Positions 4,735-29,206 of a DNA stretch of 64,000 nt are shown here, piece after piece. The position numbers were made by a program, and so were the translations under genes. Below the pieces are notes generated by a model that saw only the letters and a program-made list of their open reading frames with translations, had not been told where the DNA came from and did no database searches. Position 1 is the first letter of the stretch. Every line of letters begins with the position of its first letter. Source of the stretch: an uncultured delta proteobacterium (lineage in GTDB: Bacteria; Desulfobacterota; Binatia; UBA9968). The stretch is taken from the NCBI GenBank assembly GCA_963745835.1, contig CAVUZH010000013.1:256001-320000 (forward strand). The letters are read 5' to 3'.

Positions 4735-6321
4735 ATGGGTGAGACTCGCGTCGATCTACTGCACCTCCTGGAAGATTTGCGAGATGCGTACCCTGGGTCT
4801 ATTGAAGAAACCATTCTCACTGAGATAATGGCCAATGCGCTCGACTCGGGCGCTACGCGAATAAGTTTTGAATGCGACCCGACGCAAAGCATACTCATCG
4901 CTGTCGATAACGGCTGCGGCATGCAACGGCGGGAGCTGGCGCGCTATCACGATATTGCCGCGAGCACAAAAACCCGTGGCCAAGGAATTGGCTTTGCCGG
5001 AGTCGGAATAAAACTCGGATTGCTCGTTTGCAGTGAAGTTTTTACCGAGACCCGCCGAGGGAAAAGCCACATCGCGACCTCCTGGCACATGGCTTCGCGG
5101 CATCGCGCGCCCTGGAAATGGGTGCCGCCTGCCGGTCTAGTCTCTGAACGCGGCACTGCGGTTCGCCTGAAAGTTCAAAACGCCTTATCTCCTCTGCTCG
5201 ACCCCGGTTTTCTCGAAGGTGCTTTGCGCCGTCATTTTCAACCTTTGTTCGATCCAAGTTTCGACGAGTTTCTTGCCGAACAATATCCCAAGGGCATCGC
5301 AATCTATGTCAATGGCGAGCACCTAGACAGGCATGTCTGGGCTGCGCCTCTCTCTGCGCCATTAACAATTCGGTTATCACGAAAGCGTAAGCCTTCGGCT
5401 CTCGGTTACTTAATTCGCCAGGAGAATTCACTGCCGGAAGAAAGACGCGGCTTAGCGATCAGCACTTATGGCAAAGTAATTCGGCGCGGCTGGGATTGGC
5501 TGGGTATGACGCCAATGTCTCCGGAGCGGATCGGCGGACTTATCGAAGTGCCGGAGCTGACGGCTTGTCTGACCTTGAACAAAGGCGACTTCATTCGCAC
5601 TGGCGCGCGCGGCGCCACCTATCTCGCCTTTCGAAAGGCCATTCAGGAAGCCGTTACCCGGCAACTCGCAACCTGGGGAGATACCCGGGCATCGACGGAT
5701 GAAGCGCCGCCGCGAGAAGTCCGCCCTTTGCAACGCGACTTGGCCCACGTGCTCGAAGACCTCGCCATCGACTTTCCTCTACTCTCATCGCTGGTAGAGC
5801 AACGCTCCGGTGGGCAGAAAAAACTCCCTCTCGGGCGGGCATCGAAAGCCGCTGTGTCGCGCGCATTTGTGGCAGCATCGATAGCCGAACAATCTGAAGC
5901 TTATCCGAATCCGCGTGAAGCCACGTTGTCGCCGCAGGACCGAAACGGCGATGCCAGTCCTCACCACACGTCGGTGACTGAACCGGTCGCGGCGCCGGGT
6001 CGCGGCTTGCTGCTGCCGGCGAAAGACGCTATGCGGCGGCCCGGACATTATGGACTCGATATTCAGTTTGAGGACCAACCGGAGACGTTGGAACTGGCGC
6101 ATTTGATGGAATCGACGGTTTGGGTTAATCGCGCGCACCCAGCCTATCGTCGAGCAGTTGTCTCGCGTTCCATCGGTTATCACATCGCCCTGGCGGTAGC
6201 GATGGCCCTGGCACCGCTCGCCGTAGAGTCCGCCAACGAACACGCCTTCGTGAGCGCATTTCTCTTTCGCTGGGGTGAAACTATCGGAAACACAGCTACA
6301 CCCAAACAGAAGAAGCGTTAA
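4735..6321 (+). CDS. GHKL (HSP90/MutL/MORC-like) ATPase with an uncharacterised C-terminus
   Basis: EIMANALD (N box), DNGCGM (G1), GIGFAGVGIK (G2), GTAVRL; no HisKA domain. Confidence 0.8.
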   Translation: MGETRVDLLHLLEDLRDAYPGSIEETILTEIMANALDSGATRISFECDPTQSILIAVDNGCGMQRRELARYHDIAASTKTRGQGIGFAGVGIKLGLLVCSEVFTETRRGKSHIATSWHMASRHRAPWKWVPPAGLVSERGTAVRLKVQNALSPLLDPGFLEGALRRHFQPLFDPSFDEFLAEQYPKGIAIYVNGEHLDRHVWAAPLSAPLTIRLSRKRKPSALGYLIRQENSLPEERRGLAISTYGKVIRRGWDWLGMTPMSPERIGGLIEVPELTACLTLNKGDFIRTGARGATYLAFRKAIQEAVTRQLATWGDTRASTDEAPPREVRPLQRDLAHVLEDLAIDFPLLSSLVEQRSGGQKKLPLGRASKAAVSRAFVAASIAEQSEAYPNPREATLSPQDRNGDASPHHTSVTEPVAAPGRGLLLPAKDAMRRPGHYGLDIQFEDQPETLELAHLMESTVWVNRAHPAYRRAVVSRSIGYHIALAVAMALAPLAVESANEHAFVSAFLFRWGETIGNTATPKQKKR

Positions 6322-18835: not shown

Positions 18836-19426
18836 TCATTCGTGGAATCGGCGAGTCGCGACAGCGGCCGCTTCTTTGACCTGCGGCAGAGGACAGAAAT
18901 TGTTTGCCTCCACTCCGAACACTGGATTGAACTTGCTACGAAAATTTTCCAAAGCAATGACCGCCGCTAATTCCACCAATTCCTCGTCGGTGAAGTGTTC
19001 ATTGAGCCGATTGAAGAACTCATCCGTAACCCGTCGTTCCGTGTAGGTCATCCGCTCGGCTAACTCCAGCGCCAACCGCTCGCGCAATGAAAACAGCGGA
19101 TTCTCCTTGTAATCTCCCAGCACTGCTTCGACTTTCTCCGCGGAAGCCCCATTTTGCATCGCACTGGATGCGTTACTGTCAATTCAAAATGGGCAGCCGT
19201 TGATATTGGCGGTCTTAACACAGAGAAGGTGCTTTAATTCGGGCGAAATGAGCCCTGACTCCTGAATCCCTTGAGCCAGTGCCTGAACTCCCCTCTGAAT
19301 TGTCGGTCTTAACGCATAGACTTTCGCAGTATTCGAAACCACGCCCAGGCGCTTCTTCTGCGCTTCAAAAACTTCTCGCACCTCGTCATTCGCTTCACTT
19401 TCGGTTATGCCTTTGATTCTCGCCAT
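18836..19426 (-). CDS. AhpD/carboxymuconolactone-decarboxylase-like protein, putative selenoprotein (CPFU)
   Basis: ATG 19426 after GGAGGG. The two track ORFs 19184-19495 and 18836-19159 are in frame and join across TGA 19184-19186 as ...ANINGCPF-U-IDSNASSAMQNG..., 196 aa. The UGA sits at the second Cys of the family CxxC. Confidence 0.85.
19156..19171 (-). promoter_or_regulatory. Candidate SECIS hairpin of the AhpD-like gene
   Basis: GCAUC-CAGUGC-GAUGC starting 12 nt after the UGA; CCAUUUU/AAAAUGG can form an outer stem over the UGA. Confidence 0.5.
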
Positions 19427-19649
19427 ACTCCCTCCGCGCTCGATATCTAAATTGTGTTTCGCAACACTGTTACACGAAATCCGATGGTCTTCCACAAAGA
19501 TGCAAATCTCGCCTGACTCGATTTAGCTCCGACTGCTGCAGCTGGAGCGAATCTATCATACGGTTGCGCTGGATAGTTAACGTGTTTCGAGATGACATCT
19601 AGAATAACAATTCATCCCAGCAGCATGAGAGTTGTTGATCGCGGATGAG

Positions 19650-22550: not shown

Positions 22551-23510
22551 ATGGCGAAACTGAAGCTCACGATGGCCTGCGATAGATACGACTATCTCCA
22601 GCCTTTGCGCGAGGGCCAGGTCGAAGTCGAGGGCATCGATCTCAACCTGATCACGGTTGAAAGCGGCATTCGCCATGAGCGAATGTTCCGATACGGCGAG
22701 TACGATGCCTGTGAGTTCTCAATGTCTTCCTATCTGGTCGCGCGCGGCCGAGACGTGGATTGGTTGCAAGCCATTCCGTTTTTTCCGCGCCGCATGTGGG
22801 GGCACAAATTCTGCTTCATTCGCTCCGGTTCCGGGATCAAGAAGCCCGCGGATCTAAAAGGCGGCCGCATCGGTTTGCGCAGCTATGAAAACACCCTCGC
22901 CCTGGTCACCAAAGGCATGCTGATGAACAGCTACGATCTGTCGGTCACCGATGTCACCTGGGTAATTGTCAACAAAGAACACGTTGGTTTTAAACTTCCG
23001 CCGAACATCAAAGTGGAATTCGTCGACGGCCAACGGAAACTGGAAGATTTATTGGTTGAGGGCAAGGTCGATGCGGAGGTTGAACCGGATTTACCGCAGC
23101 GCTGGATTCGCGACGAAGGAAGCATCGAACGGCTGTTTCCGGAATTCGAAAAAGAGGAGAAAGAGTACTATCAGCGGACCAAGGTTTTCCCGATCATGCA
23201 CCCGATTGTCATCAAGAAAGAAATCCTCGACAGCGATCCCTGGGTGGCCACCAGCCTCTACGAAGCATTTGTGGCGTCACGTCAAGCGTACAACGAGTTT
23301 ATGGAGCAACCGCACCGGCTCAGTTTTGCCTGGGCACGCTCGTATTTGGAAGAAGAACGGAAGTTTTTCGGTAAAGACCCTTTTTATCAGGGCTTCAGAG
23401 AAAACCATCACGACGTGCAGAATTTGATTAAGTTTGCCGGCCAGCAGGGCATGCTCGGCCGTCAATTGACTGTTGAAGAGTTGTTTGCTGAGAACACCCA
23501 CGGCACATGA
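22551..23510 (+). CDS. 4,5-dihydroxyphthalate decarboxylase (PhtD/OphC)-like protein, binding-protein fold, no signal peptide
   Basis: LKLTMACDRYD, YDACEFSMSSY, AIPFFPRR, FPIMHPIVIKK. Confidence 0.8.
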   Translation: MAKLKLTMACDRYDYLQPLREGQVEVEGIDLNLITVESGIRHERMFRYGEYDACEFSMSSYLVARGRDVDWLQAIPFFPRRMWGHKFCFIRSGSGIKKPADLKGGRIGLRSYENTLALVTKGMLMNSYDLSVTDVTWVIVNKEHVGFKLPPNIKVEFVDGQRKLEDLLVEGKVDAEVEPDLPQRWIRDEGSIERLFPEFEKEEKEYYQRTKVFPIMHPIVIKKEILDSDPWVATSLYEAFVASRQAYNEFMEQPHRLSFAWARSYLEEERKFFGKDPFYQGFRENHHDVQNLIKFAGQQGMLGRQLTVEELFAENTHGT

Positions 23511-23601
23511 TGGCATCGTCATAGTGATAAAAGAAGATTCCGGGCGCTCGCTTTTTCGGATTAAATTTTTGTGAATAGCACAGTTGAGAGAGGAGACTAA
23601 G

Positions 23602-24705
23602 ATGGCTGAGTATCGAATTATCGATGCGGACGGGCACGTCATGGAGCTTGACAGCGAGCTGCGCGAATTCATCGGCCCACCCTACAAAGATCTGGAATGG
23701 CATCAGAGCTATTCCTTTTGGCCAGGCCTCACCATGGACGGCTACTTGCGTTCGTTGCGTCAGAAAGGCGGCTGGGCCGGCGGCGGCGACGGCCCGAAGG
23801 CAAATCACTGGCTCGACTTTCTCGACAAGAACAAGATTGAGCTGACGGTTCTTTACCCGACTCAGGGGCTCACTCACGGAGCGATCCAGGATAGAGACTG
23901 GGCCATTTGCATGGCGAGAGCCTACAACGACTGGCTCTATCACAAATTCATGGCAGTGAGCCCACGCCTCGTCGGCGTTGCGCTTTTGCCGATACAAGAT
24001 ATCGCCGAAGCGGTTAAGGAATTGCGCCGTTGCGTTAACGACCTCGGCATGGTCGGCGCCGTGCTGCCTGCTGTCGCTCCTGCCGGCCGGCTTTACAGCG
24101 GTCCTGAATTTTACCCGCTATGGGAAGAAGCGCAGAGGCTGGACGTACCGGTTTCGACTCACGGCGGCCTAAGCATGCCGTCGCTGGGCCTCGATATGGT
24201 GAACAATTTCACCATCGGACACACACTGGAACATCCGTTCGCCCAGATTCGCCAGTTCACCGCCTTGATGTTCGAAGGAGTTTTCGAGCTGTTCCCAAAC
24301 TTCCGCTTCGGCTGCATTGAATGCGGCGTCGGCTGGGTGCCTTACATGATGGACCGAATGGACGAGGAACAGGAGCGTAAAGGTCACTATTCGCCGCGGT
24401 GCAAAATGAAACCCAGCGAGTACGTCAAGAAAGGAAATATCTTCTTCGCCGTCGAAGTCGAAGAGTCGGCGCTACCGCTGGCCGCGCAAGTCGCCAATGA
24501 CAATGCGCTCATCTGGGCTTCCGATTATCCGCACGAACGCGATCAGCGCGACTTCAGCCAGGACATTCCGAATTTAATTAACCGCAAAGATGTCAGCGAT
24601 GAGCTCAAGCGCAAAATCTTTTGGGACAATCCGTTGAGATTCTACCCGCGGTTGAAGGAACGCGTGGAGAACGCTCAGTTATCAAAGAAAGCTGCCAGCG
24701 CATAA
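23602..24705 (+). CDS. Amidohydrolase family 2 protein
   Basis: IIDADGHVME, VSTHGG, WASDYPHE; ATG 23602 after AGGAG. Confidence 0.88.
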   Translation: MAEYRIIDADGHVMELDSELREFIGPPYKDLEWHQSYSFWPGLTMDGYLRSLRQKGGWAGGGDGPKANHWLDFLDKNKIELTVLYPTQGLTHGAIQDRDWAICMARAYNDWLYHKFMAVSPRLVGVALLPIQDIAEAVKELRRCVNDLGMVGAVLPAVAPAGRLYSGPEFYPLWEEAQRLDVPVSTHGGLSMPSLGLDMVNNFTIGHTLEHPFAQIRQFTALMFEGVFELFPNFRFGCIECGVGWVPYMMDRMDEEQERKGHYSPRCKMKPSEYVKKGNIFFAVEVEESALPLAAQVANDNALIWASDYPHERDQRDFSQDIPNLINRKDVSDELKRKIFWDNPLRFYPRLKERVENAQLSKKAASA

Positions 24706-24790
24706 TTCACAGTCGGATAATGGCATTCCGATGATACATGATTACGTTTAGCCCAAAATGCGCTAGACCGGGCTCGATAAAGAACAGTTT

Positions 24791-25546
24791 ATGAACCAGG
24801 ACGAATTCATCGCCGAATTGTGGGGCTATGCCGCGGAGGTTCCCACCGAGCAGCACCCATGGTTCGACGGAATCATCAAGCACCGCTGGAGTAAGGAGCA
24901 AATTATCCTCGGCGAAGTGCAGCACTATCTGCGCGTCCGCACCAACCCGATCTTCTTTGGCTATATGGCGGTCAACGCCGTATCCGCCAAAGAGTATGCG
25001 GTGATGGACACGGTTCTGGAAAATTTCATGGAAGAGCTGGGCGGTAAACGCACGCACATGGATATCATGCTGCAATTCCTCGAGGAAGGCGGCATCTCAC
25101 GGCAGGAAGCGGACAACGCCGAGCCGGCGCCGGGAACCATGGCGGCGATCGAAATGATCATCGGCTGCTGCCAAAGACGTTCGGCGTTGGAAGGAGTGGC
25201 CATGCTCGCCTTCGTTGAAAGCCAACTCGGAGGCGCGGGCAAGGTCTCCGAAAAGGTCTATCGTGAATTGACCGAGCACTATGGCTTCTCGGCCCGCGCC
25301 GCGGAAACATATCGGCTGCACGCCGCGCAAGACGAGGGACACGGCAGCCGCCAGATCGATGCGATTCGCTTGCTAGCCAATAATAGTGAAACTCAAGACA
25401 AAGTACGCGCGGCAGTGAAGCTTGGCGTGACGGCTTTCACTCTGGAATGGGACGGCCATGTTCAGGCAATGACCGGCAAAAGAGAATTCTGGGGCGGGGT
25501 CGCCGATGTAAAGCTGCGGCAACCAAAGGTCAAGTTAGCAAAGTAG
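24791..25546 (+). CDS. Heme-oxygenase-like diiron (CADD/PqqC/TenA-fold) redox protein
   Basis: ENFMEE...H, VESQ and HAAQDEGH match the CADD-type E/H/E/H/D/H ligand pattern. Confidence 0.78.
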   Translation: MNQDEFIAELWGYAAEVPTEQHPWFDGIIKHRWSKEQIILGEVQHYLRVRTNPIFFGYMAVNAVSAKEYAVMDTVLENFMEELGGKRTHMDIMLQFLEEGGISRQEADNAEPAPGTMAAIEMIIGCCQRRSALEGVAMLAFVESQLGGAGKVSEKVYRELTEHYGFSARAAETYRLHAAQDEGHGSRQIDAIRLLANNSETQDKVRAAVKLGVTAFTLEWDGHVQAMTGKREFWGGVADVKLRQPKVKLAK

Positions 25547-25662
25547 TCTTGAACTTTTTCCTAATGCTTGTTGGTCGCCGAGTTATTCGTTTTTAGGAAC
25601 CTAGATATAGGCTTCGCGGGTATGACCTAACGACAGTCGAAACCGAAAACCCGACACCCGCA

Positions 25663-25884
25663 TCACACCGGCCAATCCTGTGGTAATTCCCGACGCAATT
25701 TCTGATACTCCGGGTTGTCGGTTTGCTCGCGCCGCAGGCGAGCCAAGGCCTCAATGATTTCCTTTTGAACTAACTTAAGCGAATTGGAGACCATGCCCGT
25801 GGTCTCTTCGAAGCCGAGGCCTCAATTGCTGTATCAGCCGCTCATGCGGGTCAGGATATAAAGATCCTTTTCTTTTCTCGTCAT
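25663..25884 (-). CDS. Putative small selenoprotein with two Sec (U-Y-S-N-U), 73 aa, unknown family
   Basis: Translated by hand: MTRKEKDLYILTRMSG-U-YSN-U-GLGFEETTGMVSNSLKLVQKEIIEALARLRREQTDNPEYQKLRRELPQDWPV*. TGAs at 25834-25836 and 25822-25824; ATG 11 nt after the upstream stop; SECIS-like hairpin downstream. Absent from the ORF track. Confidence 0.7.
25787..25806 (-). promoter_or_regulatory. Candidate SECIS hairpin for the double-UGA gene
   Basis: Perfect 7-bp stem GAGACCA/UGGUCUC with loop CGGGCA; the loop starts 23 nt after UGA2 and 35 nt after UGA1. Confidence 0.6.
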
Positions 25885-25895
25885 TGCATCACCCG

Positions 25896-26312
25896 TCAAT
25901 TCGGAACACCGGAGAACCCAACTTGCTGCACGGTGATCGACTCAGTTGTCGTCTGCGGCTGTCCTTGTTCATTAACCATTATCCGTAGTCGCACGAAAAA
26001 TCTCCACTGATTTTCCTGCCAGCTCACGAGCAGAATCAAGAATGCATTATCGACTATGGTATTCGGCGGTTCCTCACAAGCGACGGCGAGATCGAGAATG
26101 AAATGGTCTTGCGCTGCGACTTTTAACGGTGGCCCAAACTTGAGTTCCTCAGCCTTGAATTTTCCATGCGGCACCCGCACGGAAAGCAGGCTCATCGGTG
26201 TTTCGGTCATGTTTCGCACCCGCCATTTGAACAACCACCGCCCCGGGTCCTTACTCGTGCCGCACTCAGCCTGCTCAACTTCAATCTTCGGCCCCCCATT
26301 CTCCCCACTCAT
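25896..26312 (-). CDS. Hypothetical beta-rich protein directly upstream of the double-UGA gene
   Basis: 138-aa ORF from ATG 26312; alternating hydrophobic strands (WLFKWRVRN, FILDLAV, WRFFVRLRI). Confidence 0.7.
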   Translation of the reverse strand: MSGENGGPKIEVEQAECGTSKDPGRWLFKWRVRNMTETPMSLLSVRVPHGKFKAEELKFGPPLKVAAQDHFILDLAVACEEPPNTIVDNAFLILLVSWQENQWRFFVRLRIMVNEQGQPQTTTESITVQQVGFSGVPN

Positions 26313-26317
26313 TACGG

Positions 26318-26358
26318 TTGAACCAAGCGTTAGCTGGAACACTGGAACATTTGGAACG
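26318..26358. repeat. Short TTGAAC/TGGAAC repeat
   Basis: ttgaac...ctggaac actggaac atttggaac. Confidence 0.5.
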
Positions 26359-26364
26359 CCGTGA

Positions 26365-27384
26365 TCAAGGTTTTAATTTTCCTTCCGCTCTTAGCTCCTG
26401 CTGAGCTAGCTTGAGAATTCGATCGTTGACCACGCGGTCCAAAGTGAAATTCTTGTCCACCAAGCCGGCGCGAATGTCCTCATCGAGCATTTGCTGGAGG
26501 CCTGCTGTGGCAATGGACAGGTCCGAAGTAAGGCCGGGCGCATAGAGATCCCAGGCGGCGCTGACGATGTCCGACTCGCCCTGCAAGCCTGCCTCGTATC
26601 CCGACTTGATCGCTTCCTGCTTGTTGAACTTGGCGAGATTGATTCCTTGTATATAGGCCTTGAGCATACGCTTGCTGGTCTCGGGAAACTTCTCCAGCAT
26701 CTCATTGCGGGTTACCAGAATGTTTTGCGGAATACCTAAGGACTCGCTCATATTGCTGATGACAGAATAGCCTGCCTTGATGAGCCGAACGCCGTCTTCT
26801 GTGGAAAACGGCGCTGCAGCGATGATCCCCTTTTCGATTGCCGCCGCCCGCAAAACCGTGCCGCCAACCGCGCGCAGCACCACGTCTTTGTCGGGATTGA
26901 TGTTGTTCTTTTTGAGGAAGGCTTTCATGGCAAACTCGGAATACGTTCCTGCGCCGGTTACCCCAACGATCTTGCCTCTGAGATCTTCCACGCTGCGCGT
27001 CTGCTTGTTACCAAGCAAAATGTAATTCGTTGTGCTCGAAGTGCATCCAATGATAGCCAAATCCAAACCGCGCGCTTTACTGCGAAAAACTGCCTGAGCG
27101 CCGCCGATGGCCGCAAAATCCACTTCACCGGAAACCAGAGCGGCAATCGCCGCCGGACCGCCACGGATGAGAATCGGTTCGACTTGGAGCCCCTGCTGCT
27201 TGAAGAATCCGCGCGCTAGCGCTGTCCGAAACGGGATCTCGCTATTCCACGCCAGGCTGACGAAAACCATGCGGAGGTTCTTCTTTTCTTGCGCGAGAGC
27301 CGCCAAAGGCTGTGCCAGCATAAACAAGACAACCAATGTTAAGCAGAGCGGGCCGACATAGTGGGAGAGGGTTGGAAGCTTCAT
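26365..27384 (-). CDS. NitT/TauT/NMT1-type substrate-binding protein
   Basis: Signal peptide; GFFKQQGLQVE; LRGKIVGVTGAG. Confidence 0.88.
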   Translation of the reverse strand: MKLPTLSHYVGPLCLTLVVLFMLAQPLAALAQEKKNLRMVFVSLAWNSEIPFRTALARGFFKQQGLQVEPILIRGGPAAIAALVSGEVDFAAIGGAQAVFRSKARGLDLAIIGCTSSTTNYILLGNKQTRSVEDLRGKIVGVTGAGTYSEFAMKAFLKKNNINPDKDVVLRAVGGTVLRAAAIEKGIIAAAPFSTEDGVRLIKAGYSVISNMSESLGIPQNILVTRNEMLEKFPETSKRMLKAYIQGINLAKFNKQEAIKSGYEAGLQGESDIVSAAWDLYAPGLTSDLSIATAGLQQMLDEDIRAGLVDKNFTLDRVVNDRILKLAQQELRAEGKLKP

Positions 27385-27421
27385 TCAGGCGTCTTCCTTT
27401 CCTGAGCGCTGCTGGCACCAG

Positions 27422-27451
27422 GTGAACTATTGAACGGCTTGAATTTTGAAC
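27422..27451. repeat. Short TTGAAC repeat
   Basis: gtgaactattgaacggcttgaattttgaac. Confidence 0.5.
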
Positions 27452-27463
27452 ACCTAAGCACGT

Positions 27464-27931
27464 TTATCTTATCGCGTATACTGAAGTACGGCCTTGCTTG
27501 TCAAAACTGATTACGTCGTAGGCTGCGGATTGGCTCCTTCCATTCCCGGTGAGCCAACCGGCATGCCGGGCACCGCCAGACCCGCCACGGCCGGCCTTTC
27601 TTTGAGCAGGCGACGAATAAGATCTGCCGGCACATGGCCTTCAATCACATAGCTTTGAACCAGCGCGGTATGACACGAATAGAGTTTCTCCGGTACGTTG
27701 TATTTCATTTTAACGTCTCCGAGTTGCTTGCCCGTGACGTCCTTCTTTTCGATTCTAAAACCATTCGATTGCGGGTGCCCAACCACGCTGAACAGCATCC
27801 TCAGCCGGGATCCTGATGACCGTGATCGATGTTGTCGCGGATTTCGGTTGCGCATAGCTGGCCGCGCCGCTCATGAACAGGAAGAGGAAAATAGTGGCAT
27901 ACCGCCAGCAAAACGAGTTCCTTAAAGGCAT
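27464..27931 (-). CDS. DUF411 (CopG-like) exported metal-binding protein, putative selenoprotein (UGCC); three apparent 1-nt deletions
   Basis: ATG 27931 after AGGAG; signal peptide; QDPG-U-GCCSAW (TGA 27801-27803); SCHTA..YVIEGHVPA..GLAVPGMPVGSPGME; C-terminus YDVISFDKQGRTSVYAIR* after a frameshift near 27520. Confidence 0.75.
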
Positions 27932-28075
27932 TAATCTTCTCCTGACCTATAGAGGTGATGCCTCAAATTACCAGATAGCGTAGGTGCGGCAAGCGCAATA
28001 TGCGTGACGCGCGTTGACACTGAAGCTGGGACTGCGGTACCGATAAATTAGCGGATTTGCTGAAAGAGGTGGTTC

Positions 28076-29206
28076 ATGAAAAATGGTTTCAAGATTCTCG
28101 ACAGCGATATGCATTTGATGGAGCCAGTGGATCTATGGGAACGCTATATCGATGCGAAGTTCAAGGCTGATGCGCCGCGCGGCCTGACCAGCGATAACGT
28201 TCGCGATTTACGCATGGCGCACCCGGACGGCCGCTACTGGGGATTACCGGCAAGCCACAATCGTAACTCATCGCACCATCGAGGCCACAACTTCAGAAAA
28301 AACCAGACTATCTATAGATCGCATGCCGAGCGTGGCTGGACTGCGGACGTTCAGCTCGAGGCGATGGACATCGAAGGCATCGATGTCGCAGTGCTTTACC
28401 CGACGCGTGCGCTGCAGGTCCTGAGCGAACCTAGAATGGAACCGAAGTTCGCCGCCGCTTTGGCGCGGGCCTACAACGATTGGCTTTACGATTTCTGTAA
28501 AACCAACCCATCCCGGCTTCTCGGCGCCGGCATGATATCGCCTTTCGACATCGATGAAGCCGTCGCCGAAGCCAAACGCTGTGCGACCGAACTCGGTTTT
28601 CGCGCGGTTTTCATGCGCTCAAGCATCATGGAGGGACGAAACTGGTTTGACGAATACTTCGAGCCGCTGTGGGCGACGTTAGAAGAGTATGAACTGCCGG
28701 TCGGCTTTCACGAGTCGTCCTCGTCTGCGGCACGGCAGACTGGTGACTTTTTTGAACCGAATTTCATGCTCCGGCGAGCCGTCGCTCAACCGATGGAGCA
28801 GATGCTCGGCCTAGTGAGCCTATGCTCCGGCGGAGTCTTGGCGCGCCATCCCAAGCTGCGGGCCGCGTTTCTGGAAGCGAATTGCACGTGGCTGCCGTGG
28901 CTGTTGTGGCGTCTGGACGAAGGTTGGGAGCGCGAGGGCGATATCTGGGCGCAAGACTTGACCATGAAACCGAGCGAGTACTTCAAGAGACAATGCTTCG
29001 TATCGGTGGAGCCCGACGAGGATGGCGTCAAGTACGTAATCGATTACATCGGCACCGGGCGGCTGGTATTCTCCACGGACTACCCCCATGGAGATTCCAA
29101 ATTTCCAGATGCAGTCGAAACTTTCCTCGATCTGCCGATCACCGATAACGACAAACGTAAAATTCTTTGGGACAACTGCGCTGAGTTCTATCGTCTCGGT
29201 GCATAG
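28076..29206 (+). CDS. Amidohydrolase family 2 protein
   Basis: ILDSDMHLME, VGFHE, FSTDYPHGD. Confidence 0.88.
   Translation: MKNGFKILDSDMHLMEPVDLWERYIDAKFKADAPRGLTSDNVRDLRMAHPDGRYWGLPASHNRNSSHHRGHNFRKNQTIYRSHAERGWTADVQLEAMDIEGIDVAVLYPTRALQVLSEPRMEPKFAAALARAYNDWLYDFCKTNPSRLLGAGMISPFDIDEAVAEAKRCATELGFRAVFMRSSIMEGRNWFDEYFEPLWATLEEYELPVGFHESSSSAARQTGDFFEPNFMLRRAVAQPMEQMLGLVSLCSGGVLARHPKLRAAFLEANCTWLPWLLWRLDEGWEREGDIWAQDLTMKPSEYFKRQCFVSVEPDEDGVKYVIDYIGTGRLVFSTDYPHGDSKFPDAVETFLDLPITDNDKRKILWDNCAEFYRLGA

Follow-up and report, generated by a model that had tools for sequence, protein, structure and literature searches.

A predicted selenoprotein with a U-x3-U motif encoded beside a CADD-like dimetal oxidase in uncultured Binatia

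Introduction

The question raised by the locus described here is whether an apparently empty gap between two convergent genes encodes a protein with two selenocysteine (Sec, U) residues. The gap lies in a stretch of 64,000 nucleotides (nt) from an uncultured delta proteobacterium (Binatia, UBA9968; assembly GCA_963745835.1, contig CAVUZH010000013.1, positions 256,001 to 320,000), which is called the window throughout. An initial annotation, made from the letters of the window and a list of its open reading frames (ORFs), had read through two in-frame UGA codons in this gap and proposed a new family with two Sec residues. Judged by comparison with its relatives, the segment from 25884 to 25663 on the minus strand is very probably a gene with two Sec residues and with a downstream hairpin (hairpin B, below) as its selenocysteine insertion sequence (SECIS). 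The gene most likely uses the SelB/tRNA-Sec system of its genome together with this one hairpin inside the coding sequence (CDS).

Results

A reading frame with two conserved in-frame UGA codons

The gene and its two internal UGA codons are located as follows.

25663..25884, minus strand: predicted U-x3-U selenoprotein CDS, 73 amino acids (aa), including the terminal TGA at 25663-25665; from translation and homologues
25834..25836, minus strand: UGA1, predicted Sec17; TGA in 84 of 84 distinct Sec-form stretches, with the aligned Cys invariant in Cys forms
25822..25824, minus strand: UGA2, predicted Sec21; TGA in 84 of 84 distinct Sec-form stretches, with the aligned Cys invariant; within the 5' arm of hairpin A

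Translated from 25884 to 25663 with TGA as U, the minus-strand frame reads MTRKEKDLYILTRMSG-U-YSN-U-GLGFEETTGMVSN...DWPV*, the full run of residues after the second U being GLGFEETTGMVSNSLKLVQKEIIEALARLRREQTDNPEYQKLRRELPQDWPV, followed by the TGA stop (25663-25665). The exact residues of the 73-aa U-x3-U frame given in the initial annotation were recovered, and the start ATG lies, as stated there, 11 nt past the TGA stop of an upstream 148-aa ORF (p148). Past the two UGAs, the mRNA terminates at an ordinary TGA 52 codons further on, so that recoding of the internal UGAs would have to be context-dependent.

Under the standard code, just a 43-aa ORF from Met31 (MVSNS...) is left at the locus, and 66 of 70 database relatives are 43-aa gene calls, designated 'hypothetical protein' where named. 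A collection of 5.8 billion proteins contained just two full-length matches, both with W at the two UGA sites. These two proteins (P0003 and P0004) come from short metagenome contigs that were evidently called with TGA as Trp; one of them also reads Trp at the terminal TGA.

The small gene was detected by six-frame search in the genome that contains the window and in 48 of 60 relatives (E <= 5.6e-14), and every match carries exactly two in-frame TGAs. The relatives include two unpublished genomes, G012 and G018, both with the small gene, p148, the neighbouring oxidase, selA and selB; without these two, the small gene is present in 46 of 58 relatives. The locus from G018 (L020) is matched by an identical protein and an identical 69-nt stretch in a public record (L082). 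One relative, G032, contains two U-x3-U copies (contigs C207 and C143), each with two TGAs, and likewise two copies of p148.

Within one order, represented by 40 loci from three families (the window's own and 39 relatives), both TGAs are retained without exception. All 40 loci conform to the pattern ...G-TGA-x-x-N-TGA-..FEET.GM[VI]SN..., in which the intervening GLG is conserved, not invariant, and an ATG occupies the homologous start position in all except one of them (39/40). The terminal stop varies freely among the same loci (15 TGA, 18 TAG and 7 TAA), whereas the internal TGAs never change.

A broader survey was made by a pattern scan of one genome per species (185,579 species), from which the best 80 of 214 relatives were kept. 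The U-x3-U form was found in 78 of these best 80, the remaining two being a C-x3-C gene (L090, with TGY, that is Cys, at UGA1 and TGT at UGA2) and a C-x3-U gene (L098, with TGY at UGA1). Over the compared 69-nt stretch, L098 is otherwise identical to the U-x3-U gene L112. Across homologues with protein identity to the window sequence down to 40%, the two positions are occupied by TGA or a Cys codon, never by TAA or TAG. The initial annotation held that a genuine family should keep TGA or Cys at both positions and should show coding-type conservation upstream of them, and that variable TGAs, or TAA and TAG in their place, would speak against it; the TGAs proved to be invariant or replaced by Cys, and the upstream signal is described in the next section.

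Altogether, 120 loci were collected, corresponding to 97 distinct coding sequences. The record titles of the survey loci are mostly metagenome-assembled genomes (MAGs) of Candidatus Binatia or 'Deltaproteobacteria bacterium', with some Chloroflexota and a few others, bearing in mind that the bin labels of MAGs may be wrong. In a genome of the same genus (G006, contig C25, approximately 106241-106460; loci L016 and L054), the C-terminus of the small gene is frameshifted (...EYQKSAAGIASGLAGV...). The same form also exists as a 52-aa database protein (P0071) and could be a real variant or an assembly error.

Coding signal upstream of the UGA codons

Substitution rates were estimated by the Nei-Gojobori method from 38 sequences in three regions of the small gene, as proportions of synonymous (pS) and nonsynonymous (pN) differences and as the nonsynonymous to synonymous ratio (dN/dS).

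13 codons before UGA1 plus 3 between the UGAs: pS 0.596, pN 0.281, dN/dS 0.30
12 codons after UGA2 (+5 to +16): pS 0.112, pN 0.041, dN/dS 0.34
40 C-terminal codons: pS 0.631, pN 0.302, dN/dS 0.28

Conservation that began only at MVSNS would have pointed to the short ORF, as the initial annotation recognized; the 16 N-terminal codons are conserved as well, with a dN/dS of 0.30. Upstream of the UGAs, variation falls at wobble positions (Gly as GGC, GGT or GGG; Ile as ATC, ATT or ATA) and in swaps between Arg and Lys. Parts of the locus are covered by contigs assembled from four RNA libraries of soil or rhizosphere origin, representing four studies. One of these contigs spans 25665-25922, that is, the whole ORF, with both TGAs unchanged, and the contigs that belong to relatives differ mostly at third codon positions of the small-gene frame.

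A conserved hairpin as the probable SECIS

Two adjacent hairpins follow or enclose the second UGA.

25787..25806, minus strand: hairpin B, GAGACCA[CGGGCA]UGGUCUC, probable SECIS; 7-bp stem, -9.2 kcal/mol alone
25808..25825, minus strand: hairpin A, UUGAGGC[CUCG]GCUUCGA, conserved; in the minimum-energy fold, -8.2 kcal/mol alone

Both are part of the minimum-energy fold of a 76-nt segment (-24.5 kcal/mol, z -2.39; 2 of 200 shuffles as stable). Hairpin B begins 15 nt past UGA2 and 27 nt past UGA1, and is the perfect 7-bp hairpin with loop CGGGCA that had initially been placed within SECIS distance of both UGAs. The weaker hairpin proposed alongside it (GGCCUC..GAGACC), which had suggested that alternative SECIS folds may serve the two codons, is absent from the minimum-energy fold, in which hairpin A forms instead.

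The codons that follow UGA2 are practically frozen. The series GGC CTC GGC TTC GAA GAG ACC RCG GGN ATG GTC TCC has a third-position entropy of about 0, and the synonymous difference of the 12 codons after UGA2 is some five-fold below that of the flanks (0.112 vs 0.60-0.63). As a control, 77 archaeal Cys-form genes (see below) gave pS values of 0.72, 0.69 and 0.71 in the same three regions; because the drop is absent there, the constraint at the RNA level belongs to the Sec forms.

Across 84 distinct sequences, 99.8% of the cells of hairpin B are paired, and the hairpin is invariant save for three places: loop position 5, where all four bases occur; the seventh pair, which is A-U or G-U through an A/G alternation; and one single mismatch. 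The first four bases of the loop C-G-G-G-Y-A are invariant in 84 of 84 sequences, whereas the bases immediately outside the stem vary. In the published bacterial SECIS (bSECIS) model, the loop has 3-9 nt, the upper stem 4-16 bp, a G occupies loop position 1 or 2, often followed by G or U, the spacing from the UGA is 16-37 nt and the minimum free energy is -7.5 kcal/mol or lower (PMC13188914, accessible part). Hairpin B agrees with all four criteria of this model for both UGAs: its loop has 6 nt and its stem 7 bp, G stands at loop position 2 with another G after it, its energy is -9.2 kcal/mol, and it is spaced 22 nt from UGA2 and 34 nt from UGA1, both within 16-37 nt. Hairpin A departs from the model in two respects, lacking a G in loop positions 1-2 and lying 15 nt from UGA1. 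In hairpin A, UGA2 pairs with the Phe and Glu codons and 95.6% of the cells are paired; its loop CUCG codon is hypervariable, with the first three bases free, and substitutions in its stem affect one side only and still allow pairing. The C-x3-C gene L090 has lost hairpin A.

In the proposed mechanism, SelB carrying Sec-tRNA would bind hairpin B and recode both UGAs, a role suggested by the agreement with the model and by conservation, and hairpin A may mask UGA2 or fix the distance during the reading of UGA1. The canonical SECIS elements of the two FdhA genes in the same genome are comparable in that they, too, are hairpins within the CDS just after the UGA, with a G-rich start of the loop. 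They have a spacer of 11-12 nt, a stem of 6-7 bp and the loop GGUCU, compared with a 15-nt spacer, a 7-bp stem and CGGGYA in hairpin B; furthermore, in the small gene a single qualifying hairpin is available for two UGAs 12 nt apart, and another hairpin encloses the second UGA.

Selenocysteine machinery

The initial annotation made the proposal depend on the presence of selABC, and the complete apparatus was found. The genome that contains the window (G000) encodes tRNA-Sec (74 bits in Rfam; anticodon tca by ARAGORN) and a cluster of selA (608 bits), selB (394 bits) and selD (383 bits) in contig C22:65479-70161, all four above the cut-offs of their families. The SelD of this genome itself has an in-frame TGA (...AAG-U-AAKLG...), and two FdhA genes contain Sec sites (C18:417030-419831 and C23:50053-53342), both with hairpins bearing the loop GGUCU. 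The C18 FdhA match has a second in-frame TGA at residue 135.

Among the 61 genomes, selB is above cut-off in 55 and selA in 58. The sole relative that lacks both selA and selB, G015 (100% complete), also lacks the small gene. Outside the order, selA and selB are both present in three of three U-x3-U genomes, and a search of the genome that carries the C-x3-C gene L090 found neither of the two.

Cys forms in archaea

Searched with a profile, a set of 1.84 billion representative proteins yielded 124 matches, mostly to the 43-aa fragment. The C-x3-C motif is present in 22 of the 28 longer proteins examined (60-133 aa), several of which have extended or truncated N-termini. In a 17-row alignment, both Cys residues are invariant and aligned with the two U, and F, T, M, L, R, P and P are invariant as well. 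Loci found with the Cys-form alignment carry archaeal titles in 80 of 80 cases (Thermoplasmata, Bathyarchaeia, Nitrososphaerota and others), as do nine of ten further loci found with a second Cys-form alignment, and the C-x3-C motif is borne by 77 archaeal Cys-form genes. By alignment, the small protein is the predicted Sec form of a family of about 71-73 aa with an invariant C-x3-C, the Cys forms of which are almost all archaeal.

The archaeal genes stand in a row of their own (L129-L208, match at about 5001-5213), in which the 71-aa C-x3-C protein is followed by a protein of about 298 aa and then by a Ta0938 gene of about 97 aa. The 298-aa protein combines a zinc finger with a TENA/THI-4 domain (TENA/HDO, HDO standing for heme-oxygenase-like dimetal oxidase) and matches PDB 4lqx at E 5e-93; the Ta0938 protein (PF11494) contains C-x2-C...CC-x2-C. 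The TENA/HDO gene directly follows the Cys form in 77 of 80 loci, and Ta0938 is present in 74 of 80; the genome that contains the window gave no match to Ta0938 (PF11494). Together with the HDO gene that adjoins the bacterial loci (see below), this arrangement makes a heme-oxygenase-like enzyme the partner common to both domains.

Are the two UGAs decoded as selenocysteine?

Several observations weigh against the assignment of two Sec residues and a shared SECIS. Hairpin B is nearly intact in the C-x3-C gene L090, so that part of its conservation could be at the protein level or recent. The covariation that the initial annotation had suggested looking for did not appear, as none of the 14 pairs shows a compensatory double change in 84 sequences (the 28 changes seen are one-sided and fall in 3 pairs); support for the structure thus comes from the invariance of synonymous sites and not from covariation. 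The 34 nt that separate UGA1 from the loop of hairpin B come close to the maximum allowed by the model, and the decoding of both UGAs, 12 nt apart, through a single element is a proposal. A search of Rfam with 25500-26000 gave no SECIS match, only a chance snoRNA match (E 5.1). The genome of L098, the completeness of which is not established, keeps one TGA and yielded no selA or selB, and G007 (96% complete) has the small gene with neither selA nor selB above cut-off. The RNA-library contigs are assemblies, not raw reads, and may stem from DNA carry-over. Finally, Sec at residues 17 and 21 is predicted from comparison and not from direct evidence of selenium.

This last point leaves room for the view that the UGAs are passed without Sec insertion, by near-cognate read-through with Trp or Cys or under a reassigned code, or that the gene is a decaying pseudogene. 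We consider this highly unlikely. The two metagenome contigs called with TGA as Trp, which show W at both sites, would fit it, but TGA is also the terminal stop in 15 of the 40 order loci, the window included, and the code is therefore not reassigned. A pseudogene would not have kept both TGAs, nor a dN/dS of 0.3, in some 100 species; besides, the presence of TGA follows selA and selB in the genomes tested outside the order, and a bSECIS-type hairpin stands at the expected place. It is more improbable still that only the 43-aa ORF from Met31 is translated and that the stretch with the TGAs is a conserved untranslated leader or RNA element. The prevailing 43-aa calls and the RNA-level constraint after UGA2 are what such a leader would predict, but the 16 codons ahead of and between the UGAs vary at third positions, with a dN/dS of 0.30 like that of the rest of the gene, the upstream ATG stands at the same place in 39 of 40 order loci, the Cys forms can be aligned from end to end and have Cys in place of both UGAs, and the differences among RNA-library contigs fall mostly at third positions of the full frame. 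Decoding as Sec thus accounts best for the locus, and we proceed from it in what follows.

Gene neighbourhood and co-inheritance

The small gene is flanked by the following two genes.

25896..26342, minus strand: p148, upstream operon partner, 148 aa (relatives usually 136-138 aa)
24791..25546, plus strand: convergent CADD-like HDO; Pfam Haem_oxygenas_2 and TENA_THI-4

In 95 of 97 distinct loci, p148 is the gene immediately upstream, in the same orientation and at a median distance of 40 nt; in the two loci lacking a p148 call, the available flank is just 101 nt long. Searches of Pfam, NCBIfam and PDB with p148 gave no match, and its 212 homologues are all unnamed or 'hypothetical protein'.

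The HDO gene (about 252 aa) lies downstream on the opposite strand in 88 of 97 distinct loci. It belongs to the TENA/PqqC group, with orthologues 68-97% identical among relatives, and its nearest solved structures are CT610/CADD (1rcw and 8va9, E 2.4e-11); its score against the CADD family TIGR04305 is 60.6 bits, under the cut-off of 200. The E..H, E and H..D..H motifs, which we take to be the metal ligands, align with those of CADD and are invariant in 20 sequences. Phe25 of the HDO is aligned with Tyr27 of CADD and is invariant in 20 of 20 sequences, this match being the first column of a local alignment.

The HDO orthologue is present in the same 48 of 60 relatives as the small U-x3-U gene and missing from the same 12. 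The p148 gene is present in 49 of 60, namely those 48 and G026 (71% complete), and 11 of the 60 relatives have none of the three genes. As the relatives are kin and hence not independent, these counts describe a pattern and are not a statistic.

Two further genes of the window, reported in the initial annotation as neighbouring genes in which UGA replaces Cys, were also analysed.

18836-19495, minus strand: AhpD/carboxymuconolactone-decarboxylase-like gene; C-P-F-U (CxxU), TGA at 19184-19186
27511..27931, minus strand: CopG/DUF411-like gene (Pfam DUF411); U-G-C-C, TGA at 27801-27803; three frames needed here

The AhpD-like case is clear: a small hairpin lies 12 nt past the TGA, and AhpD-like proteins are a listed kind of selenoprotein. 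The CopG-like case held only in part. In this gene (...DPG-U-GCCSAW...), TGA takes the place of the first Cys of C-G-C-C, which we take to be the CopG motif, but the frame is broken here by two 1-nt gaps relative to G006 (an assembly error or a pseudogene). In five relatives (L226-L230), the gene is one frame with a signal peptide and an in-frame TGA. In 27 of 120 loci, counting duplicates, a CopG-like gene precedes the p148/U-x3-U operon in the same orientation. The rows consulted in Table 1 of PMC13188914 include no DUF411 or CopG entry among the selenoproteins, and our literature search gave no relevant match.

Predicted properties and possible function of the small protein

The conserved residues U17, U21, F25, T28 and M31 follow each other at i, i+4, i+8, i+11 and i+14, a spacing that would form one face of a helix. 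The initial description of both halves as amphipathic helices was borne out for residues 34-54, the hydrophobic moment of which peaks at 100 degrees, and not for residues 4-16, where the peak is at 120 degrees; the check is crude and profile-based and supports a helix for 34-54 only. A profile search of PDB with the small family gave chance matches only (best E 0.0046, a designed protein), and a search of the ESM Atlas with one Cys form gave no match above 0.79. The Cys/Sec spacing is x3 in every member and not the x2 of the thioredoxin type, and no thioredoxin-type Pfam match was obtained with the Sec form read with Cys or with the Cys forms.

For two Sec residues at i and i+4, the initial annotation had suggested a diselenide or a soft-metal site. 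Small dedicated redox partners of dimetal enzymes exist, such as YfaE, NrdI and NrdH of ribonucleotide reductase. By analogy, and tentatively, we favour a reading in which the selenol pair would be the functional site of an accessory protein. Jointly with the co-transcribed protein of about 138 aa, this protein would serve the neighbouring CADD-like oxidase, most likely as a dedicated two-electron donor keeping its dimetal site reduced. Assays of CADD need several rounds of O2 activation and added reductant (PMC9522330, accessible text). Against an electron donor, Cys/Sec at i and i+4 on a helix is an unusual redox geometry, and the present evidence does not separate such a donor from a metal carrier.

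A metal carrier is nearly as likely: two selenolates and the conserved Met would make up a site for a soft metal (Cu(I), Fe or similar), and the protein would be a carrier, sensor or chaperone of the oxidase cassette. Consistent with such a site, both positions are Sec together in 78 of the best 80 survey loci, U17, U21, F25, T28 and M31 follow the helical spacing given above, a Sec-containing CopG-like gene lies upstream in the 27 loci mentioned above, the archaeal cassette adds a zinc-finger domain and the Cys-rich Ta0938 protein, double-Sec families called metal-binding in Table 1 of PMC13188914 behave alike, and CADD activity requires added Fe and Mn (PMC9522330, accessible text). On the other hand, a single chain offers only two Cys/Sec ligands, Pfam and NCBIfam gave no match to a metal-binding family, and the CopG-like neighbour is confined to a minority of loci and was not found in seven genomes of genus g25. 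That the oxidase uses the small protein as a substrate or as a sacrificial scaffold, for example with a tyrosine or Cys/Sec donated in trans, we regard as improbable. CADD consumes its own Tyr27 (PMC9522330, accessible text), a position at which the neighbouring oxidase has the invariant Phe25, and in the small protein one Tyr is almost invariant and the C-terminus always ends in [WF]-P-x. Yet this Tyr is Phe in L038, L039 and P0129, all 73 residues are conserved as in a folded protein, and the pairing of Tyr27 with Phe25 falls at the edge of the alignment, as noted above.

Returning to the accessory-protein reading, a wider and rather speculative proposal would embrace both domains. The U-x3-U protein and its archaeal C-x3-C relatives, with p148 in bacteria or with Ta0938 and the zinc finger in archaea, would form a hitherto unrecognised accessory system that supplies electrons or metal to an orphan branch of HDOs; the accessory proteins would have become selenoproteins in bacteria, where one SECIS would decode both UGAs and a second hairpin would sequester UGA2.

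Relation to known selenoproteins and oxidases

As far as we have seen, the U-x3-U proteins would constitute a new selenoprotein family, predicted to be decoded in the ordinary bacterial way. The initial annotation recognized no family, and none of the models of Pfam or NCBIfam (release 20.0) matches the Sec form read with Cys or 12 Cys forms. SelL, known from aquatic eukaryotes and some bacteria, has a thioredoxin fold and a UxxU redox motif that forms a diselenide. The small protein resembles SelL in that both positions of the motif are Sec rather than one Sec and one Cys; it differs in the U-x3-U spacing and in the absence of a thioredoxin-family match.

Table 1 of a review of May 2026 lists 119 selenoprotein families; the rows consulted include the double-Sec types UxxU and UxxxxU, and among them is no U-x3-U family and none tied to such an oxidase (PMC13188914). 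The bacterial double-Sec families likewise have two Sec within a few residues, were found by Cys/Sec pairs and a downstream hairpin, and are thought to act in redox or metal binding, whereas the family described here has U-x3-U, no NCBIfam match and 73 aa, and is probably helical and linked to an oxidase. A full-text search of the literature returned nothing joining selenoproteins with Binatota, or UxxxU with selenoprotein or diselenide, while supplements of surveys may list the family.

The neighbouring oxidase shares the heme-oxygenase-like fold family with CADD/CT610, the self-sacrificing 4-aminobenzoate synthase, from which it differs by falling below the TIGR04305 cut-off and by having Phe in place of the sacrificial Tyr27. 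No small Cys/Sec partner is mentioned in the accessible text of the CADD paper (PMC9522330), and in the accessible part of a review of HDOs a term search found no 'partner protein', 'reductant' or 'ferredoxin'; these searches thus gave no physiological partner by name for enzymes of this kind. The likeness to YfaE, NrdI and NrdH, small proteins whose genes adjoin that of a dimetal enzyme and are passed on along with it, is an analogy only: those proteins carry Fe-S, flavin or CxxC in known folds and have no sequence relation to the small protein.

To the known selenoproteins the locus would add a family whose U-x3-U pair is unusual. Its gene occurs frequently in a large group of uncultured soil bacteria, and current pipelines trim it to 43 residues or miss it. 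Strict co-inheritance ties this small Cys/Sec protein to an uncharacterised CADD-like dimetal oxidase, and the natural all-Cys versions of archaea, the partner enzyme of which has a solved relative (PDB 4lqx), provide a test case. Having two closely placed UGAs (12 nt apart), a single qualifying SECIS and a conserved hairpin around UGA2, the gene would also be a compact case for the action of SelB on tandem Sec codons.

Other features of the window

A window-wide scan for C..U or U..C sites returned 78 candidates; the list is noisy and includes the TGAs at 19184-19186 and 27801-27803 described above. Upstream of p148 lies one more gene on the same strand.

26365..27384, minus strand: NMT1/THI5-like substrate-binding protein (Pfam NMT1); a same-strand upstream neighbour in 29 of 97 distinct loci

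The pairing of an NMT1/THI5-like gene with an Amidohydro_2 gene occurs twice, at 22551-23510 with 23584-24705 and at 26365-27384 with 28076-29206. The neighbourhood of NMT1/THI5, Amidohydro_2 and TENA-like oxidase genes (22551-25546 on the plus strand, and 26365-29206) presumably resembles the gene sets of pyrimidine or thiamin salvage.

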